DNA of 64,000 nucleotides. It comes from Candidatus Beckwithbacteria bacterium GW2011_GWC1_49_16 (GTDB taxonomy: Bacteria > Patescibacteriota > Microgenomatia > UBA1400 > CG1-02-47-37). Positions within the stretch are counted from its first letter, which is position 1, and every line of letters starts with the position of its first letter. The notes beneath the pieces are model-generated. The model had not been told where the DNA came from, did no database searches, and saw nothing but the letters and a program-made list of their open reading frames with translations. Positions 16,021 to 55,300 of this stretch are shown piece by piece. Made by a program: the position numbers and the translations under genes. The stretch covers positions 128,193 to 192,192 of the forward strand of contig CP011210.1 of assembly GCA_001029675.1 (NCBI GenBank), in the 5' to 3' direction.

Positions 16021-16740
16021 TTGAGAATGATAGTCAAAAAGCCGAATACGTTTGTTTTGGATCTGGGCGGGTCGGTGTTTGCCCCTAACAGCAGAGCCAA
16101 GGGGATTGATATTGCCTATCTCAAGCAATTTGAGAAGTTTATCAGAAAGCAAGTCGCCTTAAAGAGGCGATTTTTTATTGTCACCGGCGGCGGCTATGTG
16201 GCCCGCGAGTACCGCGATGCGGCGGCGGCGGCGGTGGGGGGAAAGATTGCCGACGAGGACTTGGACTGGCTGGGAGTACACGCCACCAGGTTAAACGCCC
16301 ATTTGTTTCGGACGATTTTCCGTGACATTGCTTATCCGTGGATTTTAAAGCATTATGATTTGGTCGATAAGAAAGTGACCACGCCGGTGGTGGTCTGTGG
16401 CGGCTGGAAGCCGGGCTGGTCCACCGATTACTGTAGCGTCCTGGTGGCGGCGGATTACCATATCGACACGGTGATCAGCTTGACCAATGTTGACTATGCT
16501 TATGACAAAGACCCGAATAAGTATAAAGGGGCTAAGCCGATCAAAACCATGGGCTGGGACGAGATGATTAAACTGGTGGGTAAAAAGTGGCGGCCGGGAA
16601 TGAACACGCCCTTTGATCCGGTGGCTTCCCGCGAGGCCAAGAAGTTCGGTTTGAAAGTGGTGATTGCCAACGGCAGGAAGTTTGCCAATTTGGAACGGAT
16701 TTTAGACGGAAAAACTTTTACCGGCACGGTGATTGAGTAG
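16021..16740 (+). CDS. pyrH: UMP kinase, archaeal-type (amino-acid-kinase family)
   Basis: LDLGGSVF, IVTGGGYVAREY, VVVCGGWKPGWSTDY...TNVDYAY..DP and GTVIE match the archaeal uridylate kinase blocks. Confidence 0.7.
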   Translation: MRMIVKKPNTFVLDLGGSVFAPNSRAKGIDIAYLKQFEKFIRKQVALKRRFFIVTGGGYVAREYRDAAAAAVGGKIADEDLDWLGVHATRLNAHLFRTIFRDIAYPWILKHYDLVDKKVTTPVVVCGGWKPGWSTDYCSVLVAADYHIDTVISLTNVDYAYDKDPNKYKGAKPIKTMGWDEMIKLVGKKWRPGMNTPFDPVASREAKKFGLKVVIANGRKFANLERILDGKTFTGTVIE

Positions 16741-16743
16741 CAG

Positions 16744-17421
16744 ATGATGACGCTGGGGCAACCAGAGGGTGAAATAGCGGTGACCGGGCCGGTGAAGGAC
16801 TATTTGGATTTAAGTTTTAAGCGGCGGTTGGTATTAGACGGCCAGGAGGAGCAAGTCTTAGATTTTTTTCTCGGCCAGCCGCCAAACACAATTTTTCAGA
16901 TACACCAGGTGCGGCAAGGCGCTTTTGAGGGGGGAGTGAAATACTCTGAAACTGTAATAAAAAGTTATCTTAGGAGTTTAAACGATGGCTTGGTCTCGTT
17001 GAATGGGGTTGAGTTAAGGATCGGCATAGTCCCAAATTATGGCAGATCAGGAAGGCAGGGATATGTTTTAATGACCCCGGGATTGGATGGTTATCAGCGC
17101 GTAGTTAAAGCTACCGCTGGCGAGAGAAAGGTAGATTTGTTGAGTTCCGAAGTTTGTCTTAGTAGAGTCAAGACTTTGACAAGAGTCTTAAAAGAAATAA
17201 AAAAAATGGAGCTAGTGACAGGGCTTTGGTCGGGCGAAAAGTTGTCTAGAGCCGAAGAATTGAGAGCTAATCTAATAGCAGAGCTTAGAGAGCAGATCGA
17301 GGCTTATCACGGAGGAAGCTTTAATGAATTTAGGGGTTGGGCTTTACGGGGAGTTGAAGATGCGGGCAAAGAGGAGAAGGCGTTTGAGGGGATGAGAGAG
17401 GTTTCAGGGAGTAAGGCTTGA
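16744..17421 (+). CDS. hypothetical protein
   Basis: A 225-aa ORF with no recognised motif. Confidence 0.45.
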   Translation: MMTLGQPEGEIAVTGPVKDYLDLSFKRRLVLDGQEEQVLDFFLGQPPNTIFQIHQVRQGAFEGGVKYSETVIKSYLRSLNDGLVSLNGVELRIGIVPNYGRSGRQGYVLMTPGLDGYQRVVKATAGERKVDLLSSEVCLSRVKTLTRVLKEIKKMELVTGLWSGEKLSRAEELRANLIAELREQIEAYHGGSFNEFRGWALRGVEDAGKEEKAFEGMREVSGSKA

Positions 17422-17457
17422 CAGAATTGGTAAAGGTAGTATACTAGGGGGGAGTAT
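17418..17457 (+). promoter_or_regulatory. sigma70-like promoter (TTGACA-N16-TATACT) overlapped by a TACT-A-GGGGGG-AGTA operator of RcnR/CsoR type
   Basis: -35 at 17418-17423 and -10 at 17440-17445. The pseudo-palindrome ATACT-AGGGGGG-AGTAT at 17441-17457 sits 12 nt upstream of the repressor gene start. Confidence 0.5.
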
Positions 17458-17468
17458 AACATTATCAA

Positions 17469-17723
17469 ATGAAACAACTTCAAGGTAAACAGGATAAAGT
17501 TGAACAATCCCTGGCGCGGATTGAGGGGCAGGTGCGGGGCATCAGCAAGATGTACGGCGAGGGTAAGCCCTGTTTGGACGTGGTGCAGCAGGTGGCCGCT
17601 GCCCGGGAAGCTTTGGGGAGAATCGGCAGGGAGCTTCTTAAAGATGAAGCCACTCTGTGTATGACTAGCGAGAAAGAGAAACAAAAGTTTGACAAAATTT
17701 TAAAGCAGTTATTTAAAAGCTAG
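17469..17723 (+). CDS. CsoR/RcnR-family (DUF156) transcriptional repressor, two-Cys CstR-like
   Basis: The helical 84-aa protein contains ARIEGQVRGI. Cys35 and Cys64 occupy the X and Z sensor positions. There is no His at the Y position. Confidence 0.75.
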   Translation: MKQLQGKQDKVEQSLARIEGQVRGISKMYGEGKPCLDVVQQVAAAREALGRIGRELLKDEATLCMTSEKEKQKFDKILKQLFKS

Positions 17724-17732
17724 GAGTTATAT

Positions 17733-18059
17733 ATGCCAGCAGGGCATTTTACCGATCAAGACTTTGAGGACAAAGTCTTAAAGCAAAAAGGAGTGTTTTT
17801 CGTCGACTTTTACGCCGACTGGTGCGGGCCGTGTAAAATCTCCGGCCCGATCATCGACAAGCTGGCTGATGAGTACCAAGGCAAGCTGACTTTCGGCAAG
17901 GTCAATGTCGATGAGAACCAGGCCACCAGCCAAAAGTACGGGGTGATGAGCATCCCGACGGTGGTGGTTTTAAAAGACGGCCAAGAAGTCGATAGGATGA
18001 TCGGCTTTGCCGGCGAGGAAGGCTATGTCAAGATGATTAAGAAGGCGCTGGGGGAATGA
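17733..18059 (+). CDS. trxA: thioredoxin
   Basis: WCGPCK active site. Length is 108 aa. Confidence 0.9.
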   Translation: MPAGHFTDQDFEDKVLKQKGVFFVDFYADWCGPCKISGPIIDKLADEYQGKLTFGKVNVDENQATSQKYGVMSIPTVVVLKDGQEVDRMIGFAGEEGYVKMIKKALGE

Positions 18060-19027
18060 ACGAAGTGCGTAAAGTGATCATCATCGGGTCGGGGCCGGCG
18101 GGGTATGCCGCGGCGCTTTACAACGCCAGGGCAGCCCTGGTACCGTTGGTTTTGGCCGGGGGAAAATGGGGCGGGCAGTTGATGCTGACGACTAAGGTGG
18201 AAAACTGGCCGGGGAGTAACGAGGGTATCATGGGGCCGGATTTGATGGAAAAGATGCGCCAACAGGCTAAAAAGTTTGGCGCCGAGATCGTGGACAAGAA
18301 TGTGACGGCGGTGGATTTTTCGAAAAGGCCGTTTGAGATTCACCTCGGAGGAGTTCCGCCGGCCGGCGGACCACCGTCCGAGGTGTATTTGGCCGAGGCG
18401 GTGATCGTGGCTACCGGGGCAGAGGCCAAGATGCTTGAAGTTGGCGAGGAGAAGTTTTTGGGCCGGGGAGTGTCGACCTGCGCCGTCTGCGACGCGCCGT
18501 TTTACAAGGACAAAATCACTTTCGTGGTGGGCGGGGGCGACGCGGCCATGGAAGAGGCTCTGGCCTTGGTCAAGCACGCCAGGGAGGTGATTATAGTTCA
18601 CAGAAGAGACCAGTTTCGGGCTTCGCAAATCATGCAAGATCGGGTGTTAAAAGACCACGCAGACAAGATTAAAGTCATCTGGGACAGCCAGGTTGCCGGA
18701 GTGGCGGGGGAAGAGAATTTAACCAAGATTGTGGTGGAGAATGTTAAAACTCAAGCCAAACAAGAGTTAGCGGTTGACGGTTTGTTTATAGCCATTGGCC
18801 ATAAACCTAATACCCAAATTTTCAAAGGCCAGCTGGAACTTGATAAAAAGGGGTATTTGGTAACCCGTTGGGGTGATTTAGGAAACTTTCCCACCCAAAC
18901 CAGCGTCACAGGCGTTTTTGGCGCGGGGGACGTGGTGGATTTTAGGTATCGCCAGGCAGTGACCGCGGCCGGTTTTGGAGTCATGGCCGCTCTGGACGCG
19001 GAGCGCTGGCTGGAACAGCAAGGATGA
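18056..19027 (+). CDS. trxB: thioredoxin reductase
   Basis: FAD motif IIIGSGPAGYAAA, redox CAVCDA, NADPH motif GGGDAAMEEA. Confidence 0.9.
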   Translation: MNEVRKVIIIGSGPAGYAAALYNARAALVPLVLAGGKWGGQLMLTTKVENWPGSNEGIMGPDLMEKMRQQAKKFGAEIVDKNVTAVDFSKRPFEIHLGGVPPAGGPPSEVYLAEAVIVATGAEAKMLEVGEEKFLGRGVSTCAVCDAPFYKDKITFVVGGGDAAMEEALALVKHAREVIIVHRRDQFRASQIMQDRVLKDHADKIKVIWDSQVAGVAGEENLTKIVVENVKTQAKQELAVDGLFIAIGHKPNTQIFKGQLELDKKGYLVTRWGDLGNFPTQTSVTGVFGAGDVVDFRYRQAVTAAGFGVMAALDAERWLEQQG

Positions 19028-19467
19028 TAGAGGTACTTAGAAGATTTCTAGGGCCAGCCCAGATTTTAGAGAAGGAAGATGTAGTGGTTGGGTCTGATTT
19101 CGATTTAGAAACAATAGGCGGAGAAAAGAGAAATTTATGGGTAGGGGAGAAGTTAGAGTTGGTGGCGGGAAATTTTAAGGGGGAGGGGGCGGTTTTGGAA
19201 ATTAAGGGTCCGCGAGAGGCATGGTTGTCCTTACACCACATTGATGGCGGTTTAAACTTTGTGTGTCACTTTTGGACCAATGGTGGATTAACAGCGGGAA
19301 AAGGTGAACACCCTTATCCTGGGACGAACCGATTTAACTGGCAGATAGGGAAGGGCAAGAATTTTGTCACCCTTGATGTGGATACGGGTTGTTTAATCGC
19401 CTTTGATTTAGGAACGATGAGGCAGGTAAGATTAAGATTGAAGGAAAGCCAAAAAACTGACGGTTGA
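19024..19467 (+). CDS. hypothetical protein
   Basis: A 147-aa ORF coupled to trxB by a 4-nt overlap. Confidence 0.45.
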   Translation: MIEVLRRFLGPAQILEKEDVVVGSDFDLETIGGEKRNLWVGEKLELVAGNFKGEGAVLEIKGPREAWLSLHHIDGGLNFVCHFWTNGGLTAGKGEHPYPGTNRFNWQIGKGKNFVTLDVDTGCLIAFDLGTMRQVRLRLKESQKTDG

Positions 19468-19492
19468 CAAAAAAAATTATCTTTGTTGTAAT
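19464..19492 (+). promoter_or_regulatory. putative promoter TTGACA-N17-TGTAAT upstream of the dsbA-like gene
   Basis: Hexamers are at 19464-19469 and 19487-19492. The start codon is at 19500. Confidence 0.35.
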
Positions 19493-19499
19493 TTAGTTC

Positions 19500-20258
19500 A
19501 TGGCCGAAGCTAAAAAAGAAACCAAAAAGGGCAAAAGCTTACTCCAACCGATTTTGATTGGTTTGTTAGTGATTGCCGCTTTTGCCATCGGCAGCATGTG
19601 GACGGAACTTAAAATGCTCAAAGGCGGGACGGGATTGGTGGGGACGACTCAGCAGGCAGGCCAGGGGGCGGCCGGTAGTGAAGCGGCGCCGGAAGAAATT
19701 ACCGAGTTGACCGATGAGCAGTGGCAGGAAGTTTTGGCCAAGCCGGCAGCGGTTAAAGGAGACGAAGGGGCAGAAGTAATCATGGTGGAGTTTACCGATT
19801 ATCAGTGCCCGTTTTGTAAGCGCCATTTTGACCAAACCGCAGCCCAAATCGATCAGGAATACACTGCTACGGGTAAAGTGCGTTACGTGATTCGGGATTT
19901 GCCTTTGTCTTTCCACCAAAATGCCCACGCGGCGGCCGAGGCGGCCCGGTGTGCCGGCGACCAGGAAGCCTATTTTGAATACCACGATAAGCTGTTTGAG
20001 ACCCAGACCGCTTGGGCGGAACTGGCTGACCCGAATGAGACTTTTAGCGGTTATGCCGGTGAACTGGGGCTTAATAGGTCAACTTTCTCCAGTTGTCTGA
20101 CCGACGGCAAGTATAAGGCCCAAGTGGATGAGGATTTGGGGCTAGCCCAAAAAGTGGGCGCCAATGGCACGCCGACTTTCTTCATCAACGGCAAGGCATT
20201 GGTCGGGGCCCAACCCTTTGCGGCCTTTAAGGCCATGCTCGACGCGGAACTTAATTAG
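19500..20258 (+). CDS. DsbA-family thiol:disulfide oxidoreductase with an N-terminal TM anchor
   Basis: CPFC active site in a thioredoxin-fold domain. The N-terminal hydrophobic helix is LLQPILIGLLVIAAFAIGSMW. Confidence 0.8.
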   Translation: MAEAKKETKKGKSLLQPILIGLLVIAAFAIGSMWTELKMLKGGTGLVGTTQQAGQGAAGSEAAPEEITELTDEQWQEVLAKPAAVKGDEGAEVIMVEFTDYQCPFCKRHFDQTAAQIDQEYTATGKVRYVIRDLPLSFHQNAHAAAEAARCAGDQEAYFEYHDKLFETQTAWAELADPNETFSGYAGELGLNRSTFSSCLTDGKYKAQVDEDLGLAQKVGANGTPTFFINGKALVGAQPFAAFKAMLDAELN

Positions 20259-20301
20259 GCGCCGGGCATCAGCTTCTAGCTTCTAGAATTACCCTATAGA
20301 G

Positions 20302-20670
20302 TTGAAAATTCTGATTATTTATGATATTGGTGTCAGTATTATGGAAGGAGAGAGGAAATTTGACAGAGGTGGAGTCGGAGAAGAGTTTACGGTTAAAGCC
20401 GGAACCCCTCTTGAAGCTCTTATGAGTTTAAGGGCGTCGGTGATAATGTCAGAAAGGATGCCGACCATGATACAGAGAGGAGAAGCCAGGCGAAAGTCTT
20501 TTTTAGACGCGGTGCGATTTTTAAGAAGAACACCCGATGTAGACAAAAGAAAATCTTTATTAGAGGGTCTTAGGTCGACCGAGCCTGGGGTAGCCCAAAA
20601 AGTAGAGCGGACTTTGAACTTAACCAAGGCAATTGTGGTGATGATGCAGACGGCTAAAAGCCAGGGTTGA
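20302..20670 (+). CDS. hypothetical protein
   Basis: A 122-aa ORF. The start is uncertain. Confidence 0.3.
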   Translation: MKILIIYDIGVSIMEGERKFDRGGVGEEFTVKAGTPLEALMSLRASVIMSERMPTMIQRGEARRKSFLDAVRFLRRTPDVDKRKSLLEGLRSTEPGVAQKVERTLNLTKAIVVMMQTAKSQG

Positions 20671-27218: not shown

Positions 27219-27256
27219 GTCCGCGTAAAGCTTACGCCACGCGGCAAGCGCAGAAC

Positions 27257-27329
27257 GGTTACGAGGTAAGCTTTTAAAAAGAAGGTTTACCCCGTGATCG
27301 CGAAGCGATTTTACGGGGCTCTTTGAAAA
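27257..27329 (+). promoter_or_regulatory. rRNA leader with a boxB-like hairpin and boxA (GCTCTTTGAAAA); copy 1, upstream of 16S
   Basis: The hairpin CCCCGTGATCGCGAAGCGATTTTACGGGG (27290-27318) is followed by GCTCTTTGAAAA, matching the E. coli boxA consensus GCTCTTTAACAA. An 85-nt block is repeated upstream of 23S. Confidence 0.55.
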
Positions 27330-27373
27330 GTAAAGATCACTTTGTCAATTCAATTAGTGGTAGAACGTTAATT

Positions 27374-28844
<1,471 letters not shown>

Positions 28845-28979
28845 CTAAGGAGAAATTTTTGCCTCTGAGGAGATCACCTCGTAAAAAACGAGACCCGTTC
28901 TGCCACTTGTTGAGTTGACAAATTTACCCCACGTCGCTAAAAGCTATGTGGGGTTTTTTGTGTTAAAATAACTTCTCGA

Positions 28980-29053
28980 GGGCGCTTAGCTCAGTTGGTT
29001 AGAGCGCAGTCCTGATAAGACTGAGGTCCATGGTTCGAGTCCATGAGCGCCCA
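28980..29053 (+). tRNA. tRNA-Ile (anticodon GAT)
   Basis: Cloverleaf with acceptor GGGCGCT/AGCGCCC, anticodon loop CCTGATAAG, T-arm GGTTCGAGTCC. Confidence 0.9.
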
Positions 29054-29091
29054 CAATTTATTTATTCCGTTTGTTAAGATAAAATGTTGCT

Positions 29092-29970
29092 ATGGGTTCT
29101 CAACCTGGTTTACACGAGGTTCCGGCAAGCGAAGAGCTTTCTAAATATGAGAAAAGTGATGTTGTTGCCAAGGTAATTGACTGTATTGATCGTAAACTGG
29201 ATGAGGGACAGACTTCCACTATTTTGCTAACTGGCGGTCCGGGAGTGGGTAAATCAACGGCTTCTTATGAAGTGCTTGATTACTTAAAACTAGAAAGAGG
29301 CTTAGAGTCAGTGTGGATACAAGCTCCCGACATCGGCAGTGAAAAGACAAGAGATAGAATAATCCATATGGGCAACGACAAAGTCTTATTTATAGATTCA
29401 GTTGATAATTTATTTCCTTCTTCTAAAGACCCCGATGAGGTGGCTGAAACAGTGAAGCTATTAAAAGATTTAGCCCAAAAAGGAGAGGGTCCAATAGTTA
29501 TAGCTAACATCCATGATCCCTATTTAGTTAAAAGAGAGATTAAAACAACCCATCTTCCTTTAAGAGACCAAATACTAGGTGATACAGGCTTGTTTTCTGA
29601 TACAAAACAACATTTTGTCGTTGAAGATCGGTTTGTTAATGAAAAAGCCATGAGCGTGGCGGTAAAAAGACTGATAGGTCAGGCTGATATTCACGCGAGT
29701 TGGGCTACCTTTATTCAGCTTGAACTTGAAAAACACGAAGTTAATAAACATAGCGAAACAACCTTTGCATTGTCTTTACTAAAGAAAGATTCTATGCCAG
29801 GGAGTTTGAAGAAATCTTATGTTTTAGGCAGTGAAGATGAGGTCAGGACTTGGTTTAACGATGCTATTGAAGATGCTAGAAAGGTGGGAGAAGAATTTTA
29901 TCGGGCTTATTATGAGCCAGACAGCGAAAGTGAGGCTTTCAAGGGACTAGTGCGATTTGATGTAAGCTAG
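29092..29970 (+). CDS. P-loop NTPase (AAA-like) encoded inside the 16S-23S spacer
   Basis: Walker A LLTGGPGVGKST and Walker B KVLFIDSVD. The gene is AT-rich. It is flanked by a duplicated tRNA-Ile 3' end. Confidence 0.55.
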   Translation: MGSQPGLHEVPASEELSKYEKSDVVAKVIDCIDRKLDEGQTSTILLTGGPGVGKSTASYEVLDYLKLERGLESVWIQAPDIGSEKTRDRIIHMGNDKVLFIDSVDNLFPSSKDPDEVAETVKLLKDLAQKGEGPIVIANIHDPYLVKREIKTTHLPLRDQILGDTGLFSDTKQHFVVEDRFVNEKAMSVAVKRLIGQADIHASWATFIQLELEKHEVNKHSETTFALSLLKKDSMPGSLKKSYVLGSEDEVRTWFNDAIEDARKVGEEFYRAYYEPDSESEAFKGLVRFDVS

Positions 29971-29973
29971 GAT

Positions 29974-29998
29974 CTGGTTCGAGTCCATGAGCGCCCAC
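29974..29998 (+). repeat. direct repeat: second copy of the tRNA-Ile 3' end (TGGTTCGAGTCCATGAGCGCCCAC)
   Basis: 24-nt identity with 29030-29054, immediately after the stop codon of the inserted ORF. Confidence 0.85.
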
Positions 29999-30212
29999 TT
30001 TTAAGTTATTTAAGCTTGACGCGTCTTAATAGTAGTGTTATCATACATTTTGCCAAATTTTTAGGGAGAAAAAACTCTTAAATGCAAACTTTAAACCAAG
30101 GAAAATTAAACCAATGGGGTATTTTGCCGTGTTGATTTAACAGGTTTAAAAGTGAGCGTTTAGGTTAATCTCCCTCAAGGGAGATTTTTTTCGGCAAGGA
30201 TCAAGGTTGGCT

Positions 30213-30285
30213 GGGCCCATGGCGCAGTTGGTAGCGCGTCTCGTTTGCAACGAGAAGGTCGTCGGTTCGACCCCGACTGGGTCCA
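30213..30285 (+). tRNA. tRNA-Ala (anticodon TGC)
   Basis: Acceptor stem with the G3:U70 Ala identity pair, anticodon loop TTTGCAA, T-arm GGTTCGACCCC. Confidence 0.9.
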
Positions 30286-30342
30286 CCGCGTAAAGTCCCG
30301 CTAAGCTGGACCACGCGGCAAGCACGCGTAAAGCAGGCAAGC

Positions 30343-30416
30343 GGTTACGAGGTAAGCTTTTAAAAAAGAAGGTTTACCCCGTGATCGCGAAGCGATTTTA
30401 CGGGGCTCTTTGACAA
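30343..30416 (+). promoter_or_regulatory. rRNA leader copy 2 (boxB-like hairpin plus boxA GCTCTTTGACAA) upstream of 23S
   Basis: Near-identical to 27257-27329. The hairpin is 30377-30405 and boxA is 30405-30416. It is followed by a TTGACA-N18-TTTATA promoter-like sequence. Confidence 0.55.
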
Positions 30417-30929
30417 GTGAAGAGAATACCGATCTTTATAGCCAAATATTTTGGTCTATTTGAATTAAAGCAGTCGGTGGATGCCTTGGATGTATTAGCC
30501 GAAGAAGGACGTGCCAGGCCACGATAGGCGTCGGGGAGCTGCCAAGAAGCTGTGATCCGGCGGTGTCCGAATGGGAAAACCTCCTCATTAGTAATAGTGG
30601 GGGCCCCGACAGCGCAAGCTTGTCGGGGGGGGAACCCGGGGAACTGAAATATCTAAGTACCCGGAGGAAAAGAAATTAAATAAGATGCCGTCAGTAGCGA
30701 CGAGCGAAAGCGGTCTAGTCCAAACTCCGACATTACGTCGGAGGGTTGTAGGGCTCCAATATGGGACTACGAGAGATAGTCGAACAACTCGGAATAGTTG
30801 GCCAAAGAAAGTGAAAGCCTTGTAGATGAAATTTTGAGTAGCTCTAGGAGATTCCTGAGTACCACGAGAGACGGCAAACTCTTGTGGGAAGCCGGGGCGA
30901 CCACGCTCCAAGACTAAATACTAATACAT

Positions 30930-30970
<41 letters not shown>

Positions 30971-32456
30971 GGGTCGATGACCCAGTGAAATAGTACCTGA
31001 AACCGATTGCTAACAAACAGTGGGAGGGCCGACGTAAGTCGAGCCTGACCGCGTGCCTATTGAAGAATGAGCCGGCGAGTCTTTGCTGGTGGCAAGGTTA
31101 AGTCGCTTGAAGCGACGGAGCCATAGTGAAAGCGAGCCTGAATAGGGCGATTAGTTGCCAGCAGAGGACCCGAAGCCGAGCGATCTATTCATGAGCAGGG
31201 TGAACCTCGAGTGATATCGGGGGGAAGCCCGAACCTGTGTATGTTGCAAAATGCTAGGATGACTTGTGAATAGAGGTAATATGCCAAACGAGCTCGGAGA
31301 TAGCTGGTTCTCCCCGAAATATATTTAGGTATAGCCTTTCCTTATTTAGGCGCAGGGGTAAAGCACTGGATGGGCATTAGGGACTTGTCTCTGATGCTCA
31401 ACCAAACTCTGAATACTGCGTTGATAACGGAAGGAGTCAGTTGCTGGGGGCTAAGCTCCAGCCGCAAAAGGGAAACAACCCAGATCTCCAGCTAAGGTCT
31501 CTAAATCACTTGCTTAGTTTGTAAGGAGGTCGTAGTCCTTAGACAGCCAGGAAGTCGGCTTAGAAGCAGCCATCTTTGAAAGAAAGCGTAACAGCTCACT
31601 GGTTGACGGAAGACGGCGCCGAAAATTTATCGAGGATAAAGCAGTGTACCGAAGCTGAGACCCCGACAGCGCAAGCTTGTCGGGGGGTAGGGGAGCGTTC
31701 TAAGGGCAGTGAAGGGCCGATGTAAATCGCGCCTGGAGCGCTTAGAAGTGAGAATGCCGGCATGAGTAGCGGAACTCCGGTGAGAATCCGGAGGGTCGAA
31801 AGTCCGAGGTTTCCTACGCAACGTTCGTCGGCGTAGGGTTAGTCGGGCCTAAGGCAAGCCCCGTGTAGTGCGGGGGTAGTCGATGGACAACAGGTTAATA
31901 TTCCTGTACCGGTGACCAATCGTTATTCCCGACGCAAGTCGGGATAAACAGCTGGGGTGGGACGGAATTTGAGAAGTCGAGCGTCTTATTGATTTGACGT
32001 CTAAAAGGCGAGTCAGTCCCGATGTGAAAATCAGTCGGGACGACGGCGAGTCTTGATGGAGAGTTCTCCTTTGGGAGAGCAATTCGACCGGCTTAAGTTT
32101 CCGAGAAAAGCATCGCAGCGAGAAGGGTCACCGCCCGTACCGCAAACCGACACAGGTGGACAAGTCGAGTAGACTAAGATCAGCGGAAGAACGGTGGTTA
32201 AGGAACTCGGCAAATTAGCTGGGAGTAATTTTGAGAGATTCCCTGTCCGACGTTACGTCGGACCGCAGCGAAAGAGTGCCAAGCGACTGTTTAACAAAAA
32301 CACAGGTCTATGCAAAGGCGCAAGCCTAGGTATATGGGCTGAAACCTGCCCAATGCCGGAAGGTTAATTGAGAGGGTGACGTCCGACTTCGGTCGTGACC
32401 GAGCCTTCGATCGAAGCCCCGGTGAATGGCGGCTTTAACTATAAGAGTCCAAAGGT

Positions 32457-33119
32457 AGAATCGCTGCCTTTGTAAAATTTTGCTATATGCTGGAAACTCC
32501 GAGAATCTTGAACTACTGCCTGTTTATGTGTAATACTACACATAATGGGAAGTAAAAAAGTTACAAGTGCGGACAATCAGCAGGAAAGGCTAAAAACGAT
32601 TGGTTGGATAGTTGGTTTCACAGATGGTGATGGTTGTTTTTGTATTTCGATAAACAAAAACCACAGATTAAAACTTGGTTGGCAAGTGGTTCCTGAGTTT
32701 GTAATAACTCAAGGAGAGAAAAGCCTAGAGAGCTTAAAACTTGTTAAAAAGTTTTTTAAATGTGGAAGAATCTTTATTAATCGAAGACATGACAACCATA
32801 AGGAAGACCTTCATAGATATTGCGTGAGAAGTATAGCTGACTTAGAAGAAAAGATAATTCCTTTCTTTGAGAAAAATCAGTTAAAAACCTACAAAAGAAA
32901 ATCATTTGAGACTTGGAGTAAAGCAGTGAAGTTGATGATAAACAAAAGACTTCATTTAAGTATGAAAGGGATTAGAAAGTTAGCAGAAATGTCAGCGGAG
33001 ATAAACCAACAGAAACGACCAAAGTTTTTAGAATCCTCAGAGACTATACGCAGAAGTCCCGCTAAGCGGGATAAGATATAGTCCGATCTCATAAGCGATT
33101 ATGAGTTAACATTATTAAG
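32457..33119 (+). mobile_element. group I intron in 23S rRNA (helix 69/71 region, E. coli ~1931 site)
   Basis: Exon 1 ends ...AGTCCAAAGGT and exon 2 resumes AGCGAAGTACCTTGTCGGGTAAGTTCCGAC. The insert ends in G. It contains a LAGLIDADG ORF. Confidence 0.65.
32545..33081 (+). CDS. LAGLIDADG homing endonuclease, intron-encoded
   Basis: LAGLIDADG motif GFTDGDGCF. 178 aa, AT-rich, located inside the 23S intron. Confidence 0.85.
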   Translation: MGSKKVTSADNQQERLKTIGWIVGFTDGDGCFCISINKNHRLKLGWQVVPEFVITQGEKSLESLKLVKKFFKCGRIFINRRHDNHKEDLHRYCVRSIADLEEKIIPFFEKNQLKTYKRKSFETWSKAVKLMINKRLHLSMKGIRKLAEMSAEINQQKRPKFLESSETIRRSPAKRDKI

Positions 33120-33236
33120 AGCGAAGTACCTTGTCGGGTAAGTTCCGACGCGCACGAAAGGTGTAACGACTTGGCAACTGTCTTGACCACTGATCCGGTG
33201 AAATTGAAATGGCTGTGAAGATGCGGCCTATTGACT

Positions 33237-33267
<31 letters not shown>

Positions 33268-33908
33268 ATAACTTGACATTGGTTTATTTAAGTTGATCGT
33301 CTAGGATAGGCGGGACCCCGACTTTATGTCGGGGGCCAGTGTAATACCGCTCGTTAACTTGAGTAAATCTAACTTATGATCTCTGGAAACGGGATTAGGG
33401 ACAGTGTCTGGGAGGTAGTTTCGCTGGGGAGGTGGTTTGCTAAAAAGTACCGCAAACGCGCAAAGGTACCCTTAGCGCGGATAGAAATCGCGCTGAAAGT
33501 GTAAAGGCAAAAGGGTGCTTGACTGTGACACTTACAAGTGAAGCAGGAGCGAAAGCTGGCCTTAGTGATCCTCGAATCCGTTGTGGAACGGATCGGGCTT
33601 ATCGGATAAAAGCTACCCCGGGGATAACAGAGTAGTCGCACCCAAGCGTCCACAGCGACGGTGCGGTTCGCTACCTCGATGTCGGCTCAGGGTATCCTGG
33701 GGGTGTAGAAGCTCCCAAGGGTTGGTCTGTTCGCCCATTAAAACCCTACGTGAGCTGGGTTCAGAACGTCGCAAGACAGTTCGGTCTCTATCCGCAGTCA
33801 ACGTTGGATTCTTGAGGGAAGCTGACCTCAGTACGAGAGGACCAGGTTGGGCCAGTCCCTAGTGTGCCGGTTGTCGCATCAGCGGCACTGCCGGGTAGCT
33901 ACACTGGT

Positions 33909-33946
<38 letters not shown>

Positions 33947-34109
33947 TCCCAAGATGAGGAATCCCATTAAGATCCCTGGGAGACTACCAGGTGATAGGCA
34001 GCCGGTGTAAGTGCCGTAAGGCATTTAGCCTAGCTGTACTAATCGATCGATCGAAAATAGACCAATTTATTTTGGCTATAAAGAACGAGTATTCTCTTTA
34101 AAATAACTT

Positions 34110-49045: not shown

Positions 49046-49945
49046 GTGTCAATGTGGCAAGATTGGCCGATCAGAACTATTAGGGTAGAAAACAAGGGTT
49101 TTCCTGAAAGGTTGGGGTTGGTGACGCCAGAGGTAAAAAAGCTTTATTACCGAGGCAATTGGCATAAGAGAGATTTTAAGCACGCTTTGGCGGTGGTGGG
49201 TTCAAGAAGAATGACCAGCTACGGCAAGGGGGTGGTAGAGAAATTAATTCCGCCGCTTGCCCGGGCAGGAGTGACCATAGTTTCCGGGATGATGTACGGC
49301 GTCGACGCCTGCGCCCACCTAGCCTGCCTTGCCGCTGGCGGCAAGACGGTGGCGGTTTTGGGCAGCGGCCTTGACGTCACCGATTCAGAAGAAAGCGGTC
49401 GGCTTTATAGCCAAATTCTTCAATCGGGCGGCTTGGTGTTAAGCGAGTATGAACGCGACAGCCAACCGGCGTTGTGGACCTACCCGCAAAGAAACCGGAT
49501 CGTGGCCGGTTTGAGTGGGGCGGTATTGGTGATCGAGGGCGGGGAGAAGTCGGGGACGCTGATTACCGCCAAACTTGGTTTTAAGCAAAAAAAACCGGTG
49601 ATGGCTGTGCCCGGGCCGATTACCTCGAGCAATTCTTTAGGGGTTAACTGGTTGATCAAAAACGGCGCCGTGGCGGTGACCAGCGCAGAGGAGGTGTTGG
49701 CGGAGTTAGGGATCAAATCACACTCCCGGAGTGAGAAAGAACTCACCTCCAAGGTGGCTTTAGACTCCTTAGAGGTGGAGGGGTTAGGAAAGCGAATTCT
49801 TGCCGAGCTTAACCGTGAGCCTTTAGAAGTTGACGAGTTGGCTAGAAAACTGGGCATGGACGTTGTCAGTTTGGGTCAGAAATTATCGCTGATGGAAATT
49901 GCCGGTTTGGTCAAAGAACAAGATGGTAAGTATACTAGTAAGTGA
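49046..49945 (+). CDS. dprA: DNA processing protein DprA (Smf)
   Basis: Rossmann-like DprA core VTIVSGMMYGVDACAH...VAVLGSGLDV...YPQRNRIVAGLSGAVLVIEG. Confidence 0.85.
   Translation: MSMWQDWPIRTIRVENKGFPERLGLVTPEVKKLYYRGNWHKRDFKHALAVVGSRRMTSYGKGVVEKLIPPLARAGVTIVSGMMYGVDACAHLACLAAGGKTVAVLGSGLDVTDSEESGRLYSQILQSGGLVLSEYERDSQPALWTYPQRNRIVAGLSGAVLVIEGGEKSGTLITAKLGFKQKKPVMAVPGPITSSNSLGVNWLIKNGAVAVTSAEEVLAELGIKSHSRSEKELTSKVALDSLEVEGLGKRILAELNREPLEVDELARKLGMDVVSLGQKLSLMEIAGLVKEQDGKYTSK
49721..49756. repeat. palindromic element hybrid (variant A arm plus CACCTCCAAGGTG) inside the dprA CDS
   Basis: CACTCCCGGAGTG-agaaagaact-CACCTCCAAGGTG, translated as HSRSEKELTSKV. Confidence 0.6.
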
Positions 49946-51519
49946 TGTTGACTAAGGTACATTCTTTGGCTAGCCGGGGTTTGGAAGCGATCGAAGTCGA
50001 GGTCGAAGTCAATGTCGCCGGCCGGGGTTTTCCCGGTTTTAACATCGTCGGCCTGCCCAACAAGGCCATTGAAGAAGCCAAAGAGCGGGTGAGGACCGCC
50101 CTGGTCAATTCCGGCGTCGAGTTTCCTCAAAAAAAGATTACCGTTAACATGGCTCCGGCAGACATTCCTAAAGAAGGTTCGGGTTACGACTTGCCGATAG
50201 CGGTGGGGATTTTGGCGGCTACGGGGGATATACCTTCCTTCGCCGAGGCTCCGGAGGGTAAGCCTTCGGCTTATTTTTACGGCGAGCTGGGCTTGGACGG
50301 CAAACTGCGGCATACCCGGGGCGTGTTTTTGCTAGGGATGCTAGCCAAAGACAAAGGCGTCAACCAAGTTTTTGTCCCCAAACTGTCAGCCAACGAGGCG
50401 GCAGTAGTGTCGGGGATAAAAGTTTATCCGGTGGGGGATTTATTGAAACTGGTAAGGCACTTAAGACAAGAAAAAGTCATCCGGCCGCTCAAAACCATGC
50501 CGACGAAAGAGGTGATCAGCGAGGCGGAAGTGGAGTTTGATTTTGCCGAAGTGGCCGGCCAGGAGCAGGCCAAACGGGCCTTGGAGATTGCCGCGGCCGG
50601 GGGCCACAACGTGTTTATGGCCGGGCCGCCGGGAGCGGGTAAGACCATGTTGGCCCGGGCTTTGCCGGGGATTTTGCCGGAGCTGACCGAGGCTGAAGCT
50701 TTGGAAGTAACCAAGATTTACTCGGTGACCGGCAACATCGAGCCCGGCGGCGGTTTGATAAGAAGGCGGCCGTTTCGGACGCCGCACCATACTACATCAA
50801 GAGCCGGCCTGGTCGGCGGCGGCTCCAAGCCGATGCCAGGAGAAATTAGTTTAGCTCATCGCGGGGTTTTATTTTTGGACGAGTTTGCCGAGTACACCCG
50901 CTCAACCTTGGAAGCCTTGCGTCAGCCGATGGAAGATGGGGTGGTGTCGGTGGTTCGGGCCGCCGGCACGGTCAAATTTCCGGCCAAGTTCATGCTGGTG
51001 GCGGCTGCCAACCCTTGCCCCTGCGGCTTTTTGACTCACCCGAAAAAAGAATGTAAGTGTTCTTTGGGGCAGATCAAGCGTTACCAAAAGAGGCTTTCGG
51101 GGCCGATTCTGGACCGGATCGACCTTCACGTCAACGTGCCCTTTGTGGAGATCGAAAAACTAAGGCAGCGTCACACTCCCGGAGTGAAAGATGTTCACAC
51201 TCCGGGAGTGGAATCTTCGGAGGTGATCAGGGAACGGATAAAACTAGCCAGAAAGGCACAGGTGGTAAGATTCAGCGACGAACCCGGGCTATTTGCCAAC
51301 GCCGAGATGAGAAATAAACAGGTGAAAAAATATTGCCGGTTAAATAGCGAGGTAGAAAATTTGCTGCAGCAGGCGGCGGTGAGCTTTAACTTGTCGGCGC
51401 GAAGCTATTTTCGTTTGATCAAAGTGGCCCGAACCATTGCCGATCTTGCCGGAGAGAAAGAGATTGCCACCTCCCACATGGCCGAAGCGCTGCAGTACCG
51501 GATCAGGGAAGATAGTTGA
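49942..51519 (+). CDS. comM: Mg-chelatase-like AAA+ ATPase YifB/ComM
   Basis: N-terminal Lon-like domain, then Walker A GPPGAGKTMLA, Walker B VLFLDEF, sensor motifs. It contains an in-frame palindromic insertion. Confidence 0.85.
   Translation: MMLTKVHSLASRGLEAIEVEVEVNVAGRGFPGFNIVGLPNKAIEEAKERVRTALVNSGVEFPQKKITVNMAPADIPKEGSGYDLPIAVGILAATGDIPSFAEAPEGKPSAYFYGELGLDGKLRHTRGVFLLGMLAKDKGVNQVFVPKLSANEAAVVSGIKVYPVGDLLKLVRHLRQEKVIRPLKTMPTKEVISEAEVEFDFAEVAGQEQAKRALEIAAAGGHNVFMAGPPGAGKTMLARALPGILPELTEAEALEVTKIYSVTGNIEPGGGLIRRRPFRTPHHTTSRAGLVGGGSKPMPGEISLAHRGVLFLDEFAEYTRSTLEALRQPMEDGVVSVVRAAGTVKFPAKFMLVAAANPCPCGFLTHPKKECKCSLGQIKRYQKRLSGPILDRIDLHVNVPFVEIEKLRQRHTPGVKDVHTPGVESSEVIRERIKLARKAQVVRFSDEPGLFANAEMRNKQVKKYCRLNSEVENLLQQAAVSFNLSARSYFRLIKVARTIADLAGEKEIATSHMAEALQYRIREDS
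51174..51210. repeat. palindromic element, variant A, inside the comM CDS
   Basis: CACTCCCGGAGTG-aaagatgttca-CACTCCGGGAGTG, translated as HTPGVKDVHTPGV. Confidence 0.75.
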
Positions 51520-51554
51520 TTGTCGATCGTAGATAGTAGATAGTAGATTAAGAG

Positions 51555-51914
51555 ATGATAAATAACTTTGATAAACTAGATGCTTGGAAGAAAGCTCACG
51601 GTTTGGCATTGAAGATTTACAAATTAGCAGAAAATTTTCCACGAACAGAGAGGTTTGGTTTGGTAAGCCAGATTTGTCGGGCTGCAAGTTCGGTTCCGGC
51701 AAATATAGTCGAGGGTAACAGCAGACAAAGCAAGAAAGAATATGCTCAGTTTTTGTTTCAAGCCAAGGGTTCTTTGAGTGAAGTTCAGTATTTTTTAATT
51801 TTAGCTAGAGATTTAAAGTTTATTAGCGACCAGCAAGCTAAAGAATTGATGAATGACTGTGATGATGTGTCGAGGTTAATAGCCGGACTAATTAAATATT
51901 TACGGAAGGGCTAA
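51555..51914 (+). CDS. four-helix-bundle protein (23S rRNA intervening-sequence protein family)
   Basis: FDKLDAWKKAHGLALKIYKLAENFPRTERFGLVSQICRAASSVPANIVEG matches the family consensus. The gene is AT-rich. Confidence 0.75.
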   Translation: MINNFDKLDAWKKAHGLALKIYKLAENFPRTERFGLVSQICRAASSVPANIVEGNSRQSKKEYAQFLFQAKGSLSEVQYFLILARDLKFISDQQAKELMNDCDDVSRLIAGLIKYLRKG

Positions 51915-51956
51915 TAAATAGTCAACGATCGATGATCAACAACCTATAATCTAATT

Positions 51957-52313
51957 ATGCGTCAGCATAATGTCGCCCGCGGTAAACAAGGTGAAAATTT
52001 GGCGGTGAAGTTTTTACAAGAGAAGGGCTATCGGATTTTGGAAAGAAACTTTCGGACCCGGTTTGGCGAGGTCGATATTGTGGCTAAAGATGGTCAGGCG
52101 TTGGTGTTTGTGGAGGTTAAGACTAAAAGCAGCGATAGTTTTGGTGAGCCCTGGGAGATGGTGGATGAGCGCAAGCTGGAGCAGGTCAAGAAGATGGCCC
52201 AAGTTTATCTACAATCTAAAAACTACAATCAACAATCTATGCGCTTGCGCATCGACGTAGTCGGGGTGTGGCTTGATTCGGGTAAACTTAAGCACTGGCA
52301 GGCGGTTTATTGA
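51957..52313 (+). CDS. yraN: YraN-family (UPF0102) endonuclease
   Basis: GENLAVKFLQEKGYRILERNFRTRFGEVDIVAKDGQALVFVEVKTK. Confidence 0.8.
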   Translation: MRQHNVARGKQGENLAVKFLQEKGYRILERNFRTRFGEVDIVAKDGQALVFVEVKTKSSDSFGEPWEMVDERKLEQVKKMAQVYLQSKNYNQQSMRLRIDVVGVWLDSGKLKHWQAVY

Positions 52314-55300
52314 GGTTCCAGGCGAATAATCCACCAGTTAAACTCCAAATCATAAGGCAAAGATTTATTGATGGCGACTTTAAACCATTCTTTCTCTTTT
52401 TTGGCTAGAACATAAAGGACTTGGTTTTGGGGGTCGCCTATGGGGGTGACGTAAGTTAAGGTGTCGGCGGAGACATGAGGCGTAAAGACGGTGAATTCGG
52501 TTAGACCTGCGGGCAGAGTAGCCTTGCCGGCAGTGGCGTTGGTGGCAATCGAAGACGAAGCGGTTGCCTCCTCGGAGGTGGCTGTAGCAATCACCAAGCC
52601 TTCGGTGGTAACTTCTTTGAAACTAGCCGAGCCGGTGCTGACCAAATTTTGGGTGAGTAATTCCTCAAAGTGACCTTGGTTGGCGGTAACTTTTTCGGCG
52701 ATAAGGTTGCCGGTTACAGTCAGATTGCCGTTTATTACCACGTTGCCGGAGGCGTCCAGGGTCATCAGGCCGGCGAGTAAGTTGATGGCACCCACACCTG
52801 AAGGTTGAAGATAAAGGGTATTATCAAGGGAGGAAATGGAGTTTGAAGTTAAAAGTAGGTTGTCGTTTAGGTTTAAGCTATTGGTAACTTTAAGATCGGT
52901 GATGGTGGCTTGGCCGAGGACTGCCAGGTAGTCGGAGAAGAAACCAAAGCTAGCTTCGACCGAATCCAAGCGCAGGTTAGCCGAAGCCGAGGCTTCGATA
53001 GTTTGTAGATTGTAGATCGTAGTTTGTAAGTTTGGATCTTTGTCGGAGGTGTCTAGGTTTTCTGCAGATAAGGTTTGGTCGCGGTATTTTTGGGCTAGAT
53101 CGGCTATTTTTTCTCTCAAGCCTTCGATTTGGCCGGCTTTGATCTTGCCAGCAATAAGCTCGTCGGTAACCACTCTGTCGGCTACCAGCGTGCCTTGAAC
53201 ATCTAATGCTAATTGACTCCCCGGGGTGGCGCTTGACGACTCCCTGGGGTGGCTTGGCGCGATTACCACCGGGCCTTCAATAGTAATCGCGCCGTTGTCT
53301 GCCAGGGGGGAGATAAAGTCGGTGACCAGTTTGTCGGTTTCGACGGTAGGAGAGATGATTTTATTGGCAAACAGGTTACCTGCCACGTTGGCGGCGCCGT
53401 CGACGGCCAATTCTTTGGCCTCGATAAGGCCCGCTTTTACGTGGGCGATGGTGGCGGAAGCGTAAGCAGTTGCCCGAGTAATTAAATTACCCAGAGTGTC
53501 GGTTAACCGGTAAGAAGTCAGAGTGGCCGAGTCGGTGGCCGGGTCGGCGGCAGTGATGTCTAGCTCACCGGCATCAGTTAAGCGGATGCCCGGGTCGTAC
53601 CAACCGAGGTTAACAAAGACCATGATCCGGTCGCCGCCGTTTAACGGGTCCCAGGGCTCGAGCGCCTTGCCGATGATTTGGCCCGGCTCGGTCGCTTTCA
53701 TGGCTTTGCCGGGTTCGGAAGAGCTAGTTAAAGCGTCGCCGATCATGATAGGGGCAGAGGCGCGGGAGATTTTCACCGGCACCCGGCCGGCCAACGCCAC
53801 AGCCCGCTTGGCCGAGTCAGAGGCGGTGTCGCTAGCGCCCAGAACGAAACCAGGCTCGGTTGAGACGACGCCAAGTAACTGGAGATCATAAGGCTTGTCT
53901 GCTTTATGTAAAACGGCCTCAGTGACAACTTTTTGAGTGCCGTCGGGTTCGGTGATGTCGGTGGTGCCGACTTCGCCGATGACCACCACGTCGGCCGCGC
54001 CGATTGACGGGTCGCCGGAAACATAGTACTCGGCTACGTCAGCGGCCGTGGTATTAACCTTACCTGCAAACAGCGTGCCGTAGCCGTTGTATTCAGAAAG
54101 TAAGGTTCTGCCGGCAGAGGCGGCCCCGCCGTTGCCCGTGTCGGCACCGCCACTTGCTCCTGCTCCGAGGTTGCAGGCTCCAGAACCTCCCCCGGTACCG
54201 TTTTTACCTCCACCCCCGCCCCCACCAGCATCCAAAGCTCCGACGTCCGCACAACTGCCGCCGTTTCCACCTGTGGCGCCTGTAGCTCCACTTCCTGCAG
54301 TAGCTTGGTAAGTGCCCTCGGTGAGATTGCTACTAATAAGCCAAACTGTCCCTCCGGCACCACCACCACCACCTCCTCCTCCTCCTCCACCGCCACCTCC
54401 ACCAGAAGCACGATCACCGGACGCGCCGACTGACCCGTCAGTTCCAGCAGTGGCAGTTGAGGGATTTGAAGGAGTTTCTCCATTAGCTCTAATTGTGCTG
54501 CTGTTAGTGAGAGTGTTTGCAGAAATAACTACAATGCCGCCGCCAATACCGCCGTTTCCTCCATTAGATCCGGCACCGCCAGCGGCGGTGTTAGCGCTAG
54601 CGCTGATTGTGGCACAGGCACTTTCACCACCACCACCACCACCTCCACCACCACCACCTCCTCCACCCATGAAGAGAGTCGAAAGAGTGCTGTTGCCTCT
54701 GGCAGAGTCGGCTGATCCGGCCGTACCCTCAGCCGTCCCACCAGCTCCGTCGGGCCCGGCTCCACTACCACCATCAGCACCAGTGGTTCCGGCAGTTGAG
54801 GCCGCGCCATAAGCTCCGCCTCCGCCGCCTCCGCCCGCTTCTGCACCGCCTCCGCCACCTGCATCACCACTTAGGTATGAGCCATGCTGACCAAGATCAC
54901 CTCCTGCGCCTAATCCTCCACTACTTGAAGGGCCACCTCCAGTTGTACCGTCGCTGCCGTCTGTACCGTCATTACCATTGATCGAGCCGGTGCCGGAGCA
55001 GTTTGCTGCTCCAGTACCTCCGCTGCCACCGCTACCGCCTGTTCCTCCGGCATACCCCAGTTCGTTGCCCTCGACGGTGCCGCTATTTATGAATGTGCCG
55101 TTGGCTTTGATATAGAGGACTCCTCCTACGCCGGTTCCACTGTCCCAGGCGGAAGCAGTAAAAGTGGTCGAGGAGTTGATAGTAACATCGTTGTATTGGG
55201 GAATTCTAACTACTTGGGCTCCTGTTGATTGATAGTCGTTTTGAAGATTGGCAGTAAAGGTGATGATCCCGTTAGTTGAGTCGATGGCGTCTATCTCCAT

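Follow-up and report, generated by a model that had tools for sequence, protein, structure and literature searches.

The 16S-23S spacer and its insert

The window analysed here is a 64,000-nt stretch of contig CP011210.1 from Candidatus Beckwithbacteria (Microgenomates), a member of the Candidate Phyla Radiation (CPR, i.e., Patescibacteria) that is described as an ultra-small groundwater bacterium. It contains the sole rRNA locus seen in this host, and in the spacer that separates the 16S rRNA gene of that locus from its 23S rRNA gene, a single gene encoding a divergent AAA+ ATPase lies between an intact tRNA-Ile gene and an exact 24-nt copy of the 3' end of that tRNA. The ATPase gene, its leader, and one copy of the repeat are referred to here as the insert. 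We compare the spacer mainly with that of L007, a contig from a relative whose MnmA is 58% identical to that of the window and whose upstream genes are syntenic. The features of the locus are as follows.

27229..27336, + strand: rrn leader element, a hairpin (boxB-like) plus boxA-like GCTCTTTGAAAAGT (direct repeat D1; duplicated upstream of 23S)
27374..28844, + strand: 16S rRNA gene (Rfam RF00177, 1398 bits)
28845..28979, + strand: ancestral spacer from 16S to tRNA-Ile, with the GTTGACAAA motif and a hairpin, then a T-run
28980..29053/29054, + strand: tRNA-Ile(GAT), intact; attL in the integration model (ARAGORN; Rfam tRNA, 71.6 bits)
29031..29054, + strand: 24-nt direct repeat, copy 1, inside tRNA-Ile
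29055..29091, + strand: leader of the inserted gene, 37 nt, AT-rich, GC 0.22 (from the sequence)
29092..29970, + strand: cargo gene, a 292-aa divergent AAA+ ATPase of an orphan family (ATG start, TAG stop)
29975..29998, + strand: 24-nt direct repeat, copy 2; attR in the integration model (exact repeat match)
29999..30212, + strand: ancestral spacer resumes, aligning from its first bases with the L007 segment before tRNA-Ala
30213..30287, + strand: tRNA-Ala(TGC) (ARAGORN, Rfam)
30310..30423, + strand: spacer copy of the leader hairpin and boxA-like element, upstream of 23S
30454..34064, + strand: 23S rRNA gene, interrupted by a ~690-nt insertion (Rfam RF02541)

The open reading frame (ORF) at 29092-29970 is the single long ORF between tRNA-Ile and tRNA-Ala. 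An earlier reading of these letters alone (the sequence-only reading) had described a complete tRNA-Ile at 28980-29053, an ORF, and a recurrence of the last 24 nt of the tRNA right after the stop codon, and this arrangement proved correct in every detail: the tRNA was confirmed by both ARAGORN and Rfam, and the 64 kb contain exactly two copies of the 24-mer TGGTTCGAGTCCATGAGCGCCCAC (29031-29054 and 29975-29998), with all 24 positions identical. No further TGGTTCGAGTCCATGAGCGCCCAC site was found in the window at up to three mismatches, and none appeared in 100 shuffles; the pair is not expected by chance. Both copies are on the + strand in direct orientation, copy 2 lying 944 nt downstream and beginning 4 nt beyond the TAG stop of the ORF. 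Within the tRNA, the repeat begins with the final 3 nt of the 5' T-stem strand, continues over the T-loop, the 3' strands of T-stem and acceptor, and the discriminator, and takes in one additional base, so that identity begins at 29031, 3 nt ahead of the T-loop (29034-29040), and ends 1 nt past the discriminator. Copy 2 (29975-29998) is not called as a tRNA by ARAGORN or Rfam.

The right flank following copy 2 (TTTTAAGTTATTTAA-GCTTGAC...) aligns with the L007 segment that precedes tRNA-Ala, and both a promoter-like TTGAC box and the terminal hairpin and T-run fall inside the aligned part. Host sequence therefore resumes exactly at the end of the repeat, and the insert thus consists of 29055-29974 plus one repeat copy, 944 bp in total. 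On the other side, the 5' part of the spacer at 28845-28979, through GTTGACAAA, aligns with the post-16S segment of L007, and a hairpin with a T-run can be seen by eye in the post-16S spacers of both the window and L007, where it was left unaligned by MAFFT. Homology extending upstream of copy 2 into the anticodon arm of the tRNA was considered and rejected, as these bases encode the C-terminal VRFDVS of the ORF, which aligns with homologues ending in VRHNV and VRHNVMS. Repeat analysis found no inverted repeats at the ends of the insert, nor any terminal inverted repeats, and an Rfam search over 29055-29998 returned nothing beyond noise at E-values up to 5, with no intron RNA.

The same structure in other assemblies

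The assembly collection (ENA, JGI, NCBI, Logan) has the exact ATPase protein in 87 of its blocks, on contigs of up to 1.05 Mb, and separate assemblies, made with different assemblers, show the tRNA/ORF/repeat structure in at least 24 contigs, among them ones of 146 kb, 151 kb, and 1.05 Mb. The 1.05-Mb contig holds AKM78947.1 (locus tag UY43_C0001G0198). Five fetched loci (L001-L004 and L031) are ~100% identical to the window across the spacer; both repeat copies were verified directly at the same spacing in L001-L004, and L031 is 100% identical over that interval. A 219-aa "variant" of the protein (P0126) turned out to be merely a different start-codon call.

Within the rRNA genes, L002 has 46 differences clustered in 145 nt of 16S (window 28059-28202) on an otherwise identical contig, probably reflecting a chimeric assembly with the 16S of another organism. 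A 123-nt stretch inside 23S (33592-33714) is missing from L031 (GCA_001001885.1), a strain otherwise 100% identical, which may represent a polymorphic intervening sequence (IVS) or an assembly difference. The 23S gene of the window spans 3,611 nt, compared with the 2,925 positions of the Rfam model RF02541, and its ~690-nt AT-rich insertion (32450-33140) contains an ORF (32545-33081, + strand) encoding a 178-aa single-domain LAGLIDADG endonuclease (Pfam LAGLIDADG_1 at 2.8e-23). A free-standing member of the "23S rRNA-intervening sequence protein" family (PF05635, 5.5e-39) is encoded at 51555-51914 (+ strand), remote from the rRNA genes and flanked by ComM-like and YraN-like ORFs.

The cargo ATPase and its relatives

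The AT-richness attributed to the 879-nt ORF is borne out by its base composition: its GC content is 0.40, and its GC content at third codon positions (GC3) is 0.32, compared with a mean GC3 of 0.56 for the 55 other ORFs of the window (z = -2.3). By composition, the cargo looks foreign.

The sequence-only reading had also called the product a Walker A/B P-loop NTPase. The Walker A motif (GGPGVGKST) and a Pfam AAA match of 30.9 bits against a cutoff of 21.2 (with weak matches to nSTAND3 and nSTAND5) uphold the P-loop assignment, and the second motif (VLFIDSVD) is only Walker B-like. The Walker A sequence GGPGVGKST is common to all four aligned sequences that cover the region; the Walker B region reads (L/V)LF(I/V)DS-x-(D/E), with an invariant Asp, a Ser in the place of the canonical Glu, and an acidic residue two positions on. 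AlphaFold2 gave a pLDDT (predicted local distance difference test score) of 40 from the single sequence and an informative model only with three full-length homologues. The gene is real and its product has an AAA+ fold, with an alpha/beta core and a helical lid; a fold search in BFVD returned generic AAA+ matches only (TM-scores of 0.3-0.5). Neither a nuclease nor a transposase domain was detected in the ORF. Matches in the PHROG and NCBIfam libraries were at the level of the P-loop only, and the single match among the PADLOC defence models (mad8, E = 0.024 over 23 residues) likewise corresponds to the P-loop, giving no defence assignment.

In a search space of 5.8 billion clustered proteins (1.84 billion representatives), only four relatives besides the window protein were found, and the family consists of three full-length members and two truncated remnants. 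P0002 and P0125 are full-length, 37-40% identical, and extend from an N-terminal YEKSDV motif to a C-terminal RAY(Y/F)EP...KGLVR motif. P0123 is a 3'-truncated copy (L025, 538-969) cut after about codon 105 by a convergent cysteinyl-tRNA synthetase (CysRS) gene, and P0124 is a 5'-truncated copy (L027, 54-548) that has no Walker A half and continues in frame into a NUDIX fragment. The genes for P0123, P0124, and P0125 are flanked by unrelated housekeeping genes (for P0125, those for peptide deformylase and for dCMP deaminase), and the P0002 gene, on a JGI 3300075153 contig, lies among unrelated genes, with an 80-aa GIY-YIG gene two genes away. No tRNA or rRNA gene was found near the homologues on the three contigs whose DNA was fetched (those of P0123, P0124, and P0125). 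Because the family is tiny and scattered, it follows the pattern of an accessory or mobile gene, and its members may act as such.

Transcription of the locus

The sequence-only reading placed the insert inside an rRNA operon and expected it to be co-transcribed at very high levels. As CPR rRNA loci are often split at tRNA-Ile/tRNA-Ala, the suggestion that the gene lies inside an operon appears weakened. The distance between 16S and 23S is 1,609 nt (665 nt without the insert); the threshold for unlinked rRNA genes is 1,500 nt, and unlinked rRNA genes are reported to be typical of Patescibacteria (Brewer et al., bioRxiv 10.1101/705046).

Upstream of both 16S and 23S lies a near-identical stretch of ~110 nt with a hairpin and a boxA-like element (GCTCTTTGAAAAGT / GCTCTTTGACAAGT). 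We take GCTCTTTGAAAAGT to be boxA from its comparison with the E. coli consensus; a boxA-like motif is also found in L007, directly after tRNA-Ala. This leader and spacer pair resembles the classical rRNA antitermination elements, and since boxA-like elements flank the region, co-transcription of the ORF with the rRNA is possible.

A consensus scan detected a promoter-like TTGACG-17-TATCAT at 30016-30044, just downstream of the insert and conserved in L007, and a terminator-like hairpin with a T-run lies at 30167-30186, just before tRNA-Ala. Some 120 nt separate the promoter-like site from the hairpin, with a possible 17-codon ORF after GGGAG, and the promoter-to-hairpin layout is also present in the distant relative L007 (20320-20516). 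The stretch at 30016-30186, for which Rfam gave no match, could encode a small transcript or serve as a second promoter/leader for tRNA-Ala-23S. Ahead of the ATPase gene, a -10-like TAAAAT is located at 29080-29085, 6 nt before the ATG, with no Shine-Dalgarno sequence, and the homologue in L028 has TATAAT 6 nt ahead of its ATG; the consensus scan called no full promoter in the leader at 29055-29091. The signals on either side of the ORF speak against a simple co-transcription with the rRNA. The ATPase gene is probably expressed from a weak and possibly leaderless promoter of its own, by rRNA read-through, or by both.

Recurrence at the spacer tRNA-Ile in CPR genomes

A synteny walk starting from MnmA yielded a comparable spacer only in L007/L008. 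No rRNA was found downstream of MnmA in L005/L006, L009/L010 stop within ~700 nt, and L029/L030 stop before any rRNA locus. The 16S-23S spacer of L007 is 4.1 kb long (16500-20650) and contains a 131-aa ORF without identified family and an 85-aa GIY-YIG ORF. The latter splits a tRNA-like 5' fragment (17098-17160) at the T-stem, and its stop overlaps the intact tRNA-Ile. Downstream of that tRNA are tandem 93-nt units that hold two further exact 32-nt copies of the tRNA-Ile 3' end and an odd long anticodon-arm hairpin, followed by an 823-aa ORF without family match.

A degenerate tRNA-Ile 3' end, used as the query against species-representative genomes, matched 14 loci, all but one of them (13/14) in CPR. 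The same architecture as in the window is present in one of these, the unrelated CPR genome L018 (CAYZRJ010000046.1, 3409-4445, - strand), where tRNA-Ile(GAT) is followed by a single gene for a 285-aa nucleotidyltransferase (NTP_transf_2/Adenyl_transf, Lnu/MntA-like) and then by 43 nt that repeat the tRNA exactly, from the anticodon to CCA. The fragment in L018 starts at the anticodon, i.e., the other canonical integration sub-site, and its tRNA-Ile block is inverted relative to 16S and tRNA-Ala. In L023 (1217-1290) and L024 (5041-5124, - strand), a 5' pseudo-copy of tRNA-Ile lies directly upstream of the intact gene, 14-19 nt away, extending from the acceptor to the anticodon stem or loop and carrying a D-loop insertion of ~40-46 nt. 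With L007, such 5' tRNA-Ile-like fragments upstream of tRNA-Ile are seen in three lineages.

In 9 of the 12 loci that hold both tRNAs, tRNA-Ile and tRNA-Ala are 2-6 kb apart. As judged by eye from translations, the intervening ORFs are ordinary-looking (RelA/SpoT-like, glycosyltransferases, PilT, RsmG, Pol I, Fpg, UGPase), and none in these split loci looks like an integrase. The loci L012-L016, L019, L022, and L023, from WWE3, CPR3, and "Saccharibacteria" records, are split in this way, with tRNA-Ile on the opposite strand in several.

Gene order around the locus also differs, as a comparison with L007 and L030 indicates: relatives have DprA, ComM, and YraN between MnmA and the rRNA locus, whereas in the window (27121-49045) the rRNA locus comes directly after MnmA, with the DprA/ComM/YraN-like ORFs 22 kb further downstream (49046-52313). 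This difference in MnmA-DprA gene order points to a rearrangement that had one of its ends at the rRNA locus. In CPR bacteria, the position immediately 3' of the spacer tRNA-Ile seems to be a recurrent landing and rearrangement spot.

Origin of the insert

Islands and prophages integrated in tRNA genes were reportedly treated by Reiter in 1989 and by Williams in 2002. An intact tRNA gene, then foreign DNA, then a displaced 3' fragment of the same orientation form the published signature of integration into tRNA genes, with crossovers at the anticodon loop or at the T-loop/T-acceptor junction, and 3,760 of 3,919 catalogued islands have 3' fragments (PMC4383910). The window shows an intact tRNA-Ile with its cognate fragment on the same replicon, the 3' fragment lies downstream of the tRNA in the same orientation, and the fragment boundary belongs to the T-stem/T-loop class, all in agreement with the Islander criteria (classes per PMC4383910). 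The attL/attR footprint proposed in the sequence-only reading therefore stands with respect to arrangement, sub-site, foreign composition, and host junction; the crossover itself may have been site-specific or homologous.

The best reading of the insert, in our view, is that of a decayed integrative element that kept its att sites and lost its integrase, similar to a cis-mobilizable element (CIME). We favour, with modest confidence, a history in which a small element entered the spacer tRNA-Ile at its T-loop by integrase-type integration and then lost all but one cargo gene. A small circular DNA would have carried an attachment site mimicking tRNA-Ile from the T-arm to the 3' end, and would have recombined with the spacer tRNA-Ile through a crossover in or beside the T-loop, most likely catalysed by a tyrosine integrase. 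The element would have rebuilt the tRNA, so that attL joins the host 5' part to an element-supplied 3' part and the tRNA stays functional, while the original 3' end of the gene was displaced 944 bp downstream as attR. The integrase and other genes of the element may later have been deleted in the streamlined genome, or may never have been present in cis, leaving both att sites and one orphan AAA+ ATPase gene. The empty attB junction is predicted to read ...GAGGTCCATGGTTCGAGTCCATGAGCGCCCAC joined to TTTTAAGTTATTTAAGC, and the circular attP junction ...GATGTAAGCTAGGATC joined to TGGTTCGAGTCCATGAGCGCCCAC and then to AATTTATTTATTCC. We infer the integrase mechanism and the decay history, as we do the mode of expression and the function of the gene.

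Several observations weigh against this origin. The insert contains no integrase or other recombinase, its sole long ORF being the AAA+ ATPase, and so lacks the tyrosine integrase gene that the Islander criteria place inside an island. That the cargo is a single gene without integrase was already noted in the sequence-only reading, and a crude search of the whole 64-kb window (phmmer and tblastn over ORFs and six frames, with XerD and gamma-delta resolvase queries) was also negative for XerD-like catalytic domains and resolvases. The sole recombinase-like ORF of the window (179 aa, 60333-60872, - strand) is made up solely of integrase N-terminal SAM-like domains (PF02899, 1e-17), the catalytic domain being absent; downstream of it is the ORF for a giant, repetitive protein of 2,547 aa (52307-59950, - strand), the first ~50 residues of which resemble it by eye. 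At 944 bp, the unit falls well short of what the ~250-bp attP and the integrase gene take up in typical elements, so that a decay step has to be assumed and is not seen. An empty site in relatives, which would show the state before insertion, was not found either: the exact 34-nt junction (tRNA 3' half plus right flank) had 0 matches in the metagenome contig collection, the one collection searched. The nearest relatives are only ~60% identical in MnmA, and L007 has different content at the site. No donor emerged, as ATPase relatives were absent from IMG/VR, from plasmids, and, beyond P-loop matches of 27% coverage, from phage records, and viral contigs held no copy of the tRNA-Ile 3' end; no flanking repeats surround the homologues in L025 and L028, the two loci checked. 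Finally, all sampled copies are clonal (~100% identical), and no estimate of age or dN/dS can be obtained from them. With no empty site, no donor, and clonal copies, recent insertion or continuing mobility is not supported.

Alternative origins

A homologous (RecA-type) Campbell insertion, in which circular foreign DNA carrying the 3' part of tRNA-Ile and the ATPase gene entered by a single crossover through at least 24 bp, would produce the same topology and duplicate the homology without the integrase that was not found. Natural transformation could be the uptake route: the window contains competence-type genes, a DprA-like (49046-49945) and a ComM/Mg-chelatase-like (49942-51519) ORF identified via synteny with Pfam-annotated L007 genes, and tRNA-Ile 3' halves are strongly conserved across CPR lineages. 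However, 24 bp is at the lower limit for homologous recombination, and in both independent cases the fragment begins at a canonical integrase sub-site (the T-stem in the window, the anticodon in L018) and extends as far as the 3' end of the tRNA, which a random homologous fragment need not do. In addition, ATPase homologues have never been seen beside a tRNA elsewhere. We consider a homologous insertion unlikely.

The compactness of the insert brings up a second alternative, namely an active system of integrase-less single-gene cassettes that depends on a recombinase in trans and uses the spacer tRNA-Ile as a docking and expression platform. In each of two CPR lineages, a single gene (unrelated between the two) is fitted tightly between tRNA-Ile and the repeat of its 3' segment, with 37 nt before and 4 nt after the ORF in the window and ~46 nt before and ~13 nt after in L018; the tandem units of L007 each end with the tRNA-Ile 3' end; and the repeat is perfectly conserved even though attR has no tRNA function. 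Yet there are only two such cases, neither a circular form, an empty site, nor a second copy of the window or L018 cassette was found, the ATPase homologues in L025 and L028 have no flanking repeat, and tight packing is expected anyway in streamlined CPR genomes. Such an active system seems to us rather unlikely, and its wider form, a CPR cassette system that inserts and excises single genes at the spacer tRNA-Ile with a tRNA-Ile 3' copy as the recombination site and a recombinase encoded elsewhere, is a speculative proposition. If it were true, the rRNA spacer would be an integron-like platform that captures and expresses accessory genes, and its repeated use would progressively split the rRNA operon, explaining the frequent unlinking of 16S and 23S in CPR.

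The repeat could also have arisen locally, through duplication of the tRNA-Ile 3' end by slippage or unequal crossing-over, with the ATPase gene landing between the copies by an unrelated illegitimate event. The tandem 93-nt repeats of L007, which contain the tRNA-Ile 3' end, and the partial 5' tRNA-Ile pseudo-copies directly upstream of the gene in L023 and L024 indicate that the locus is prone to local duplication. We find this origin improbable, as it requires two independent events with ends exactly at the repeat boundaries, whereas host spacer homology restarts precisely after copy 2 and the one-gene layout recurs in L018.

Very improbable is an insertion driven by a homing endonuclease, in which a break in tRNA-Ile (e.g., by a GIY-YIG enzyme) was repaired from a donor with an extra gene. 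Endonucleases do occur in comparable settings, such as the 85-aa GIY-YIG ORF of L007 between the T-stem-broken tRNA-like 5' fragment and the intact tRNA-Ile, the 80-aa GIY-YIG gene two genes from P0002, and the LAGLIDADG insertion in the 23S of the window, but a nuclease domain is missing from the cargo, the insert has no endonuclease gene in or beside it, and no intron RNA was detected. As for an assembly artefact or chimera, repeats flanking rRNA genes are often misassembled and L002 has a chimeric stretch inside its 16S, but the same structure recurs in at least 24 independently assembled contigs of up to 1.05 Mb and is thus not an artefact, a possibility we regard as practically negligible.

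Comparison with known systems

Among known systems, the decayed element that we favour resembles first of all the islands in tRNA genes (Islander, PMC4383910), with which it shares an intact tRNA and a displaced direct 3' fragment marking the two ends, a T-stem sub-site, foreign cargo, and a regenerated tRNA. Typical islands are multigene and carry their own integrase, whereas the insert is 0.94 kb long, has one gene and no integrase, and targets the spacer tRNA-Ile of a CPR rRNA locus. Integrase-less mini-inserts bounded by tRNA fragments are discarded by design in island finders that require an integrase. The insert also draws attention to an orphan AAA+ ATPase family that may behave like a mobile accessory gene.

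A CIME is a decayed integrative and conjugative element (ICE) or integrative and mobilizable element (IME) that has kept attL and attR and no longer has its genes for integration and transfer (PMC5704250); a related incoming element can mobilise it. In structure, the insert conforms to this definition, as both att sites are kept, recombination genes are absent, and only the cargo is left. It differs in its extreme size and single gene, and in that no ICE or IME parent, accretion partner, or helper is known here; a search of viral, plasmid, and phage collections turned up no parent element.

Similar to integron cassettes and Xer-dependent dif modules, the insert consists of one ORF with little non-coding DNA, has short site-like borders and no recombinase in cis, and occupies a potentially highly expressed position. 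Unlike them, it has no attC-type imperfect palindrome or dif-like XerC/XerD site, its repeats are direct copies of a tRNA 3' end, no inverted repeat is present at its ends, and neither IntI nor any other recombinase was found. It is likewise unlike a transposon or insertion sequence (IS), as the duplication is 24 nt long (43 nt in L018) and matches tRNA landmarks.

Insertions encoding homing endonucleases have been described in CPR rRNA genes (PMC11270868). They concern the same group of organisms and the same locus, and the ~690-nt LAGLIDADG insertion in the 23S of the window is of this kind. The insert, in contrast, lies in the spacer, encodes an ATPase instead of a nuclease, and is bordered by tRNA-end repeats and not by an intron or IVS structure. 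That literature treats insertions within rRNA genes and not the spacer site (PMC11270868), and the accessible literature offered nothing specific on protein genes in the CPR 16S-23S spacer beside tRNA-Ile.

Finally, the locus can be compared with unlinked rRNA operons (bioRxiv 10.1101/705046), among which Patescibacteria are listed, since its distance of 1,609 nt exceeds the 1,500-nt threshold. The extra length differs in being one recent-looking insertion with a visible integration scar: a single 944-bp event shifts the 16S-23S distance from 665 to 1,609 nt, past the threshold for unlinked genes. Insertions of this type are a plausible first step in the separation of 16S and 23S and offer a testable route to split rRNA loci; together with L007 and L018, the insert suggests that foreign DNA has repeatedly entered Patescibacteria by way of the spacer tRNA-Ile. 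Compared with all of these systems, it is a scar of a known kind, but an unusually small and integrase-less one located in an rRNA spacer, and it provides a base-exact example of a protein gene entering such a spacer.

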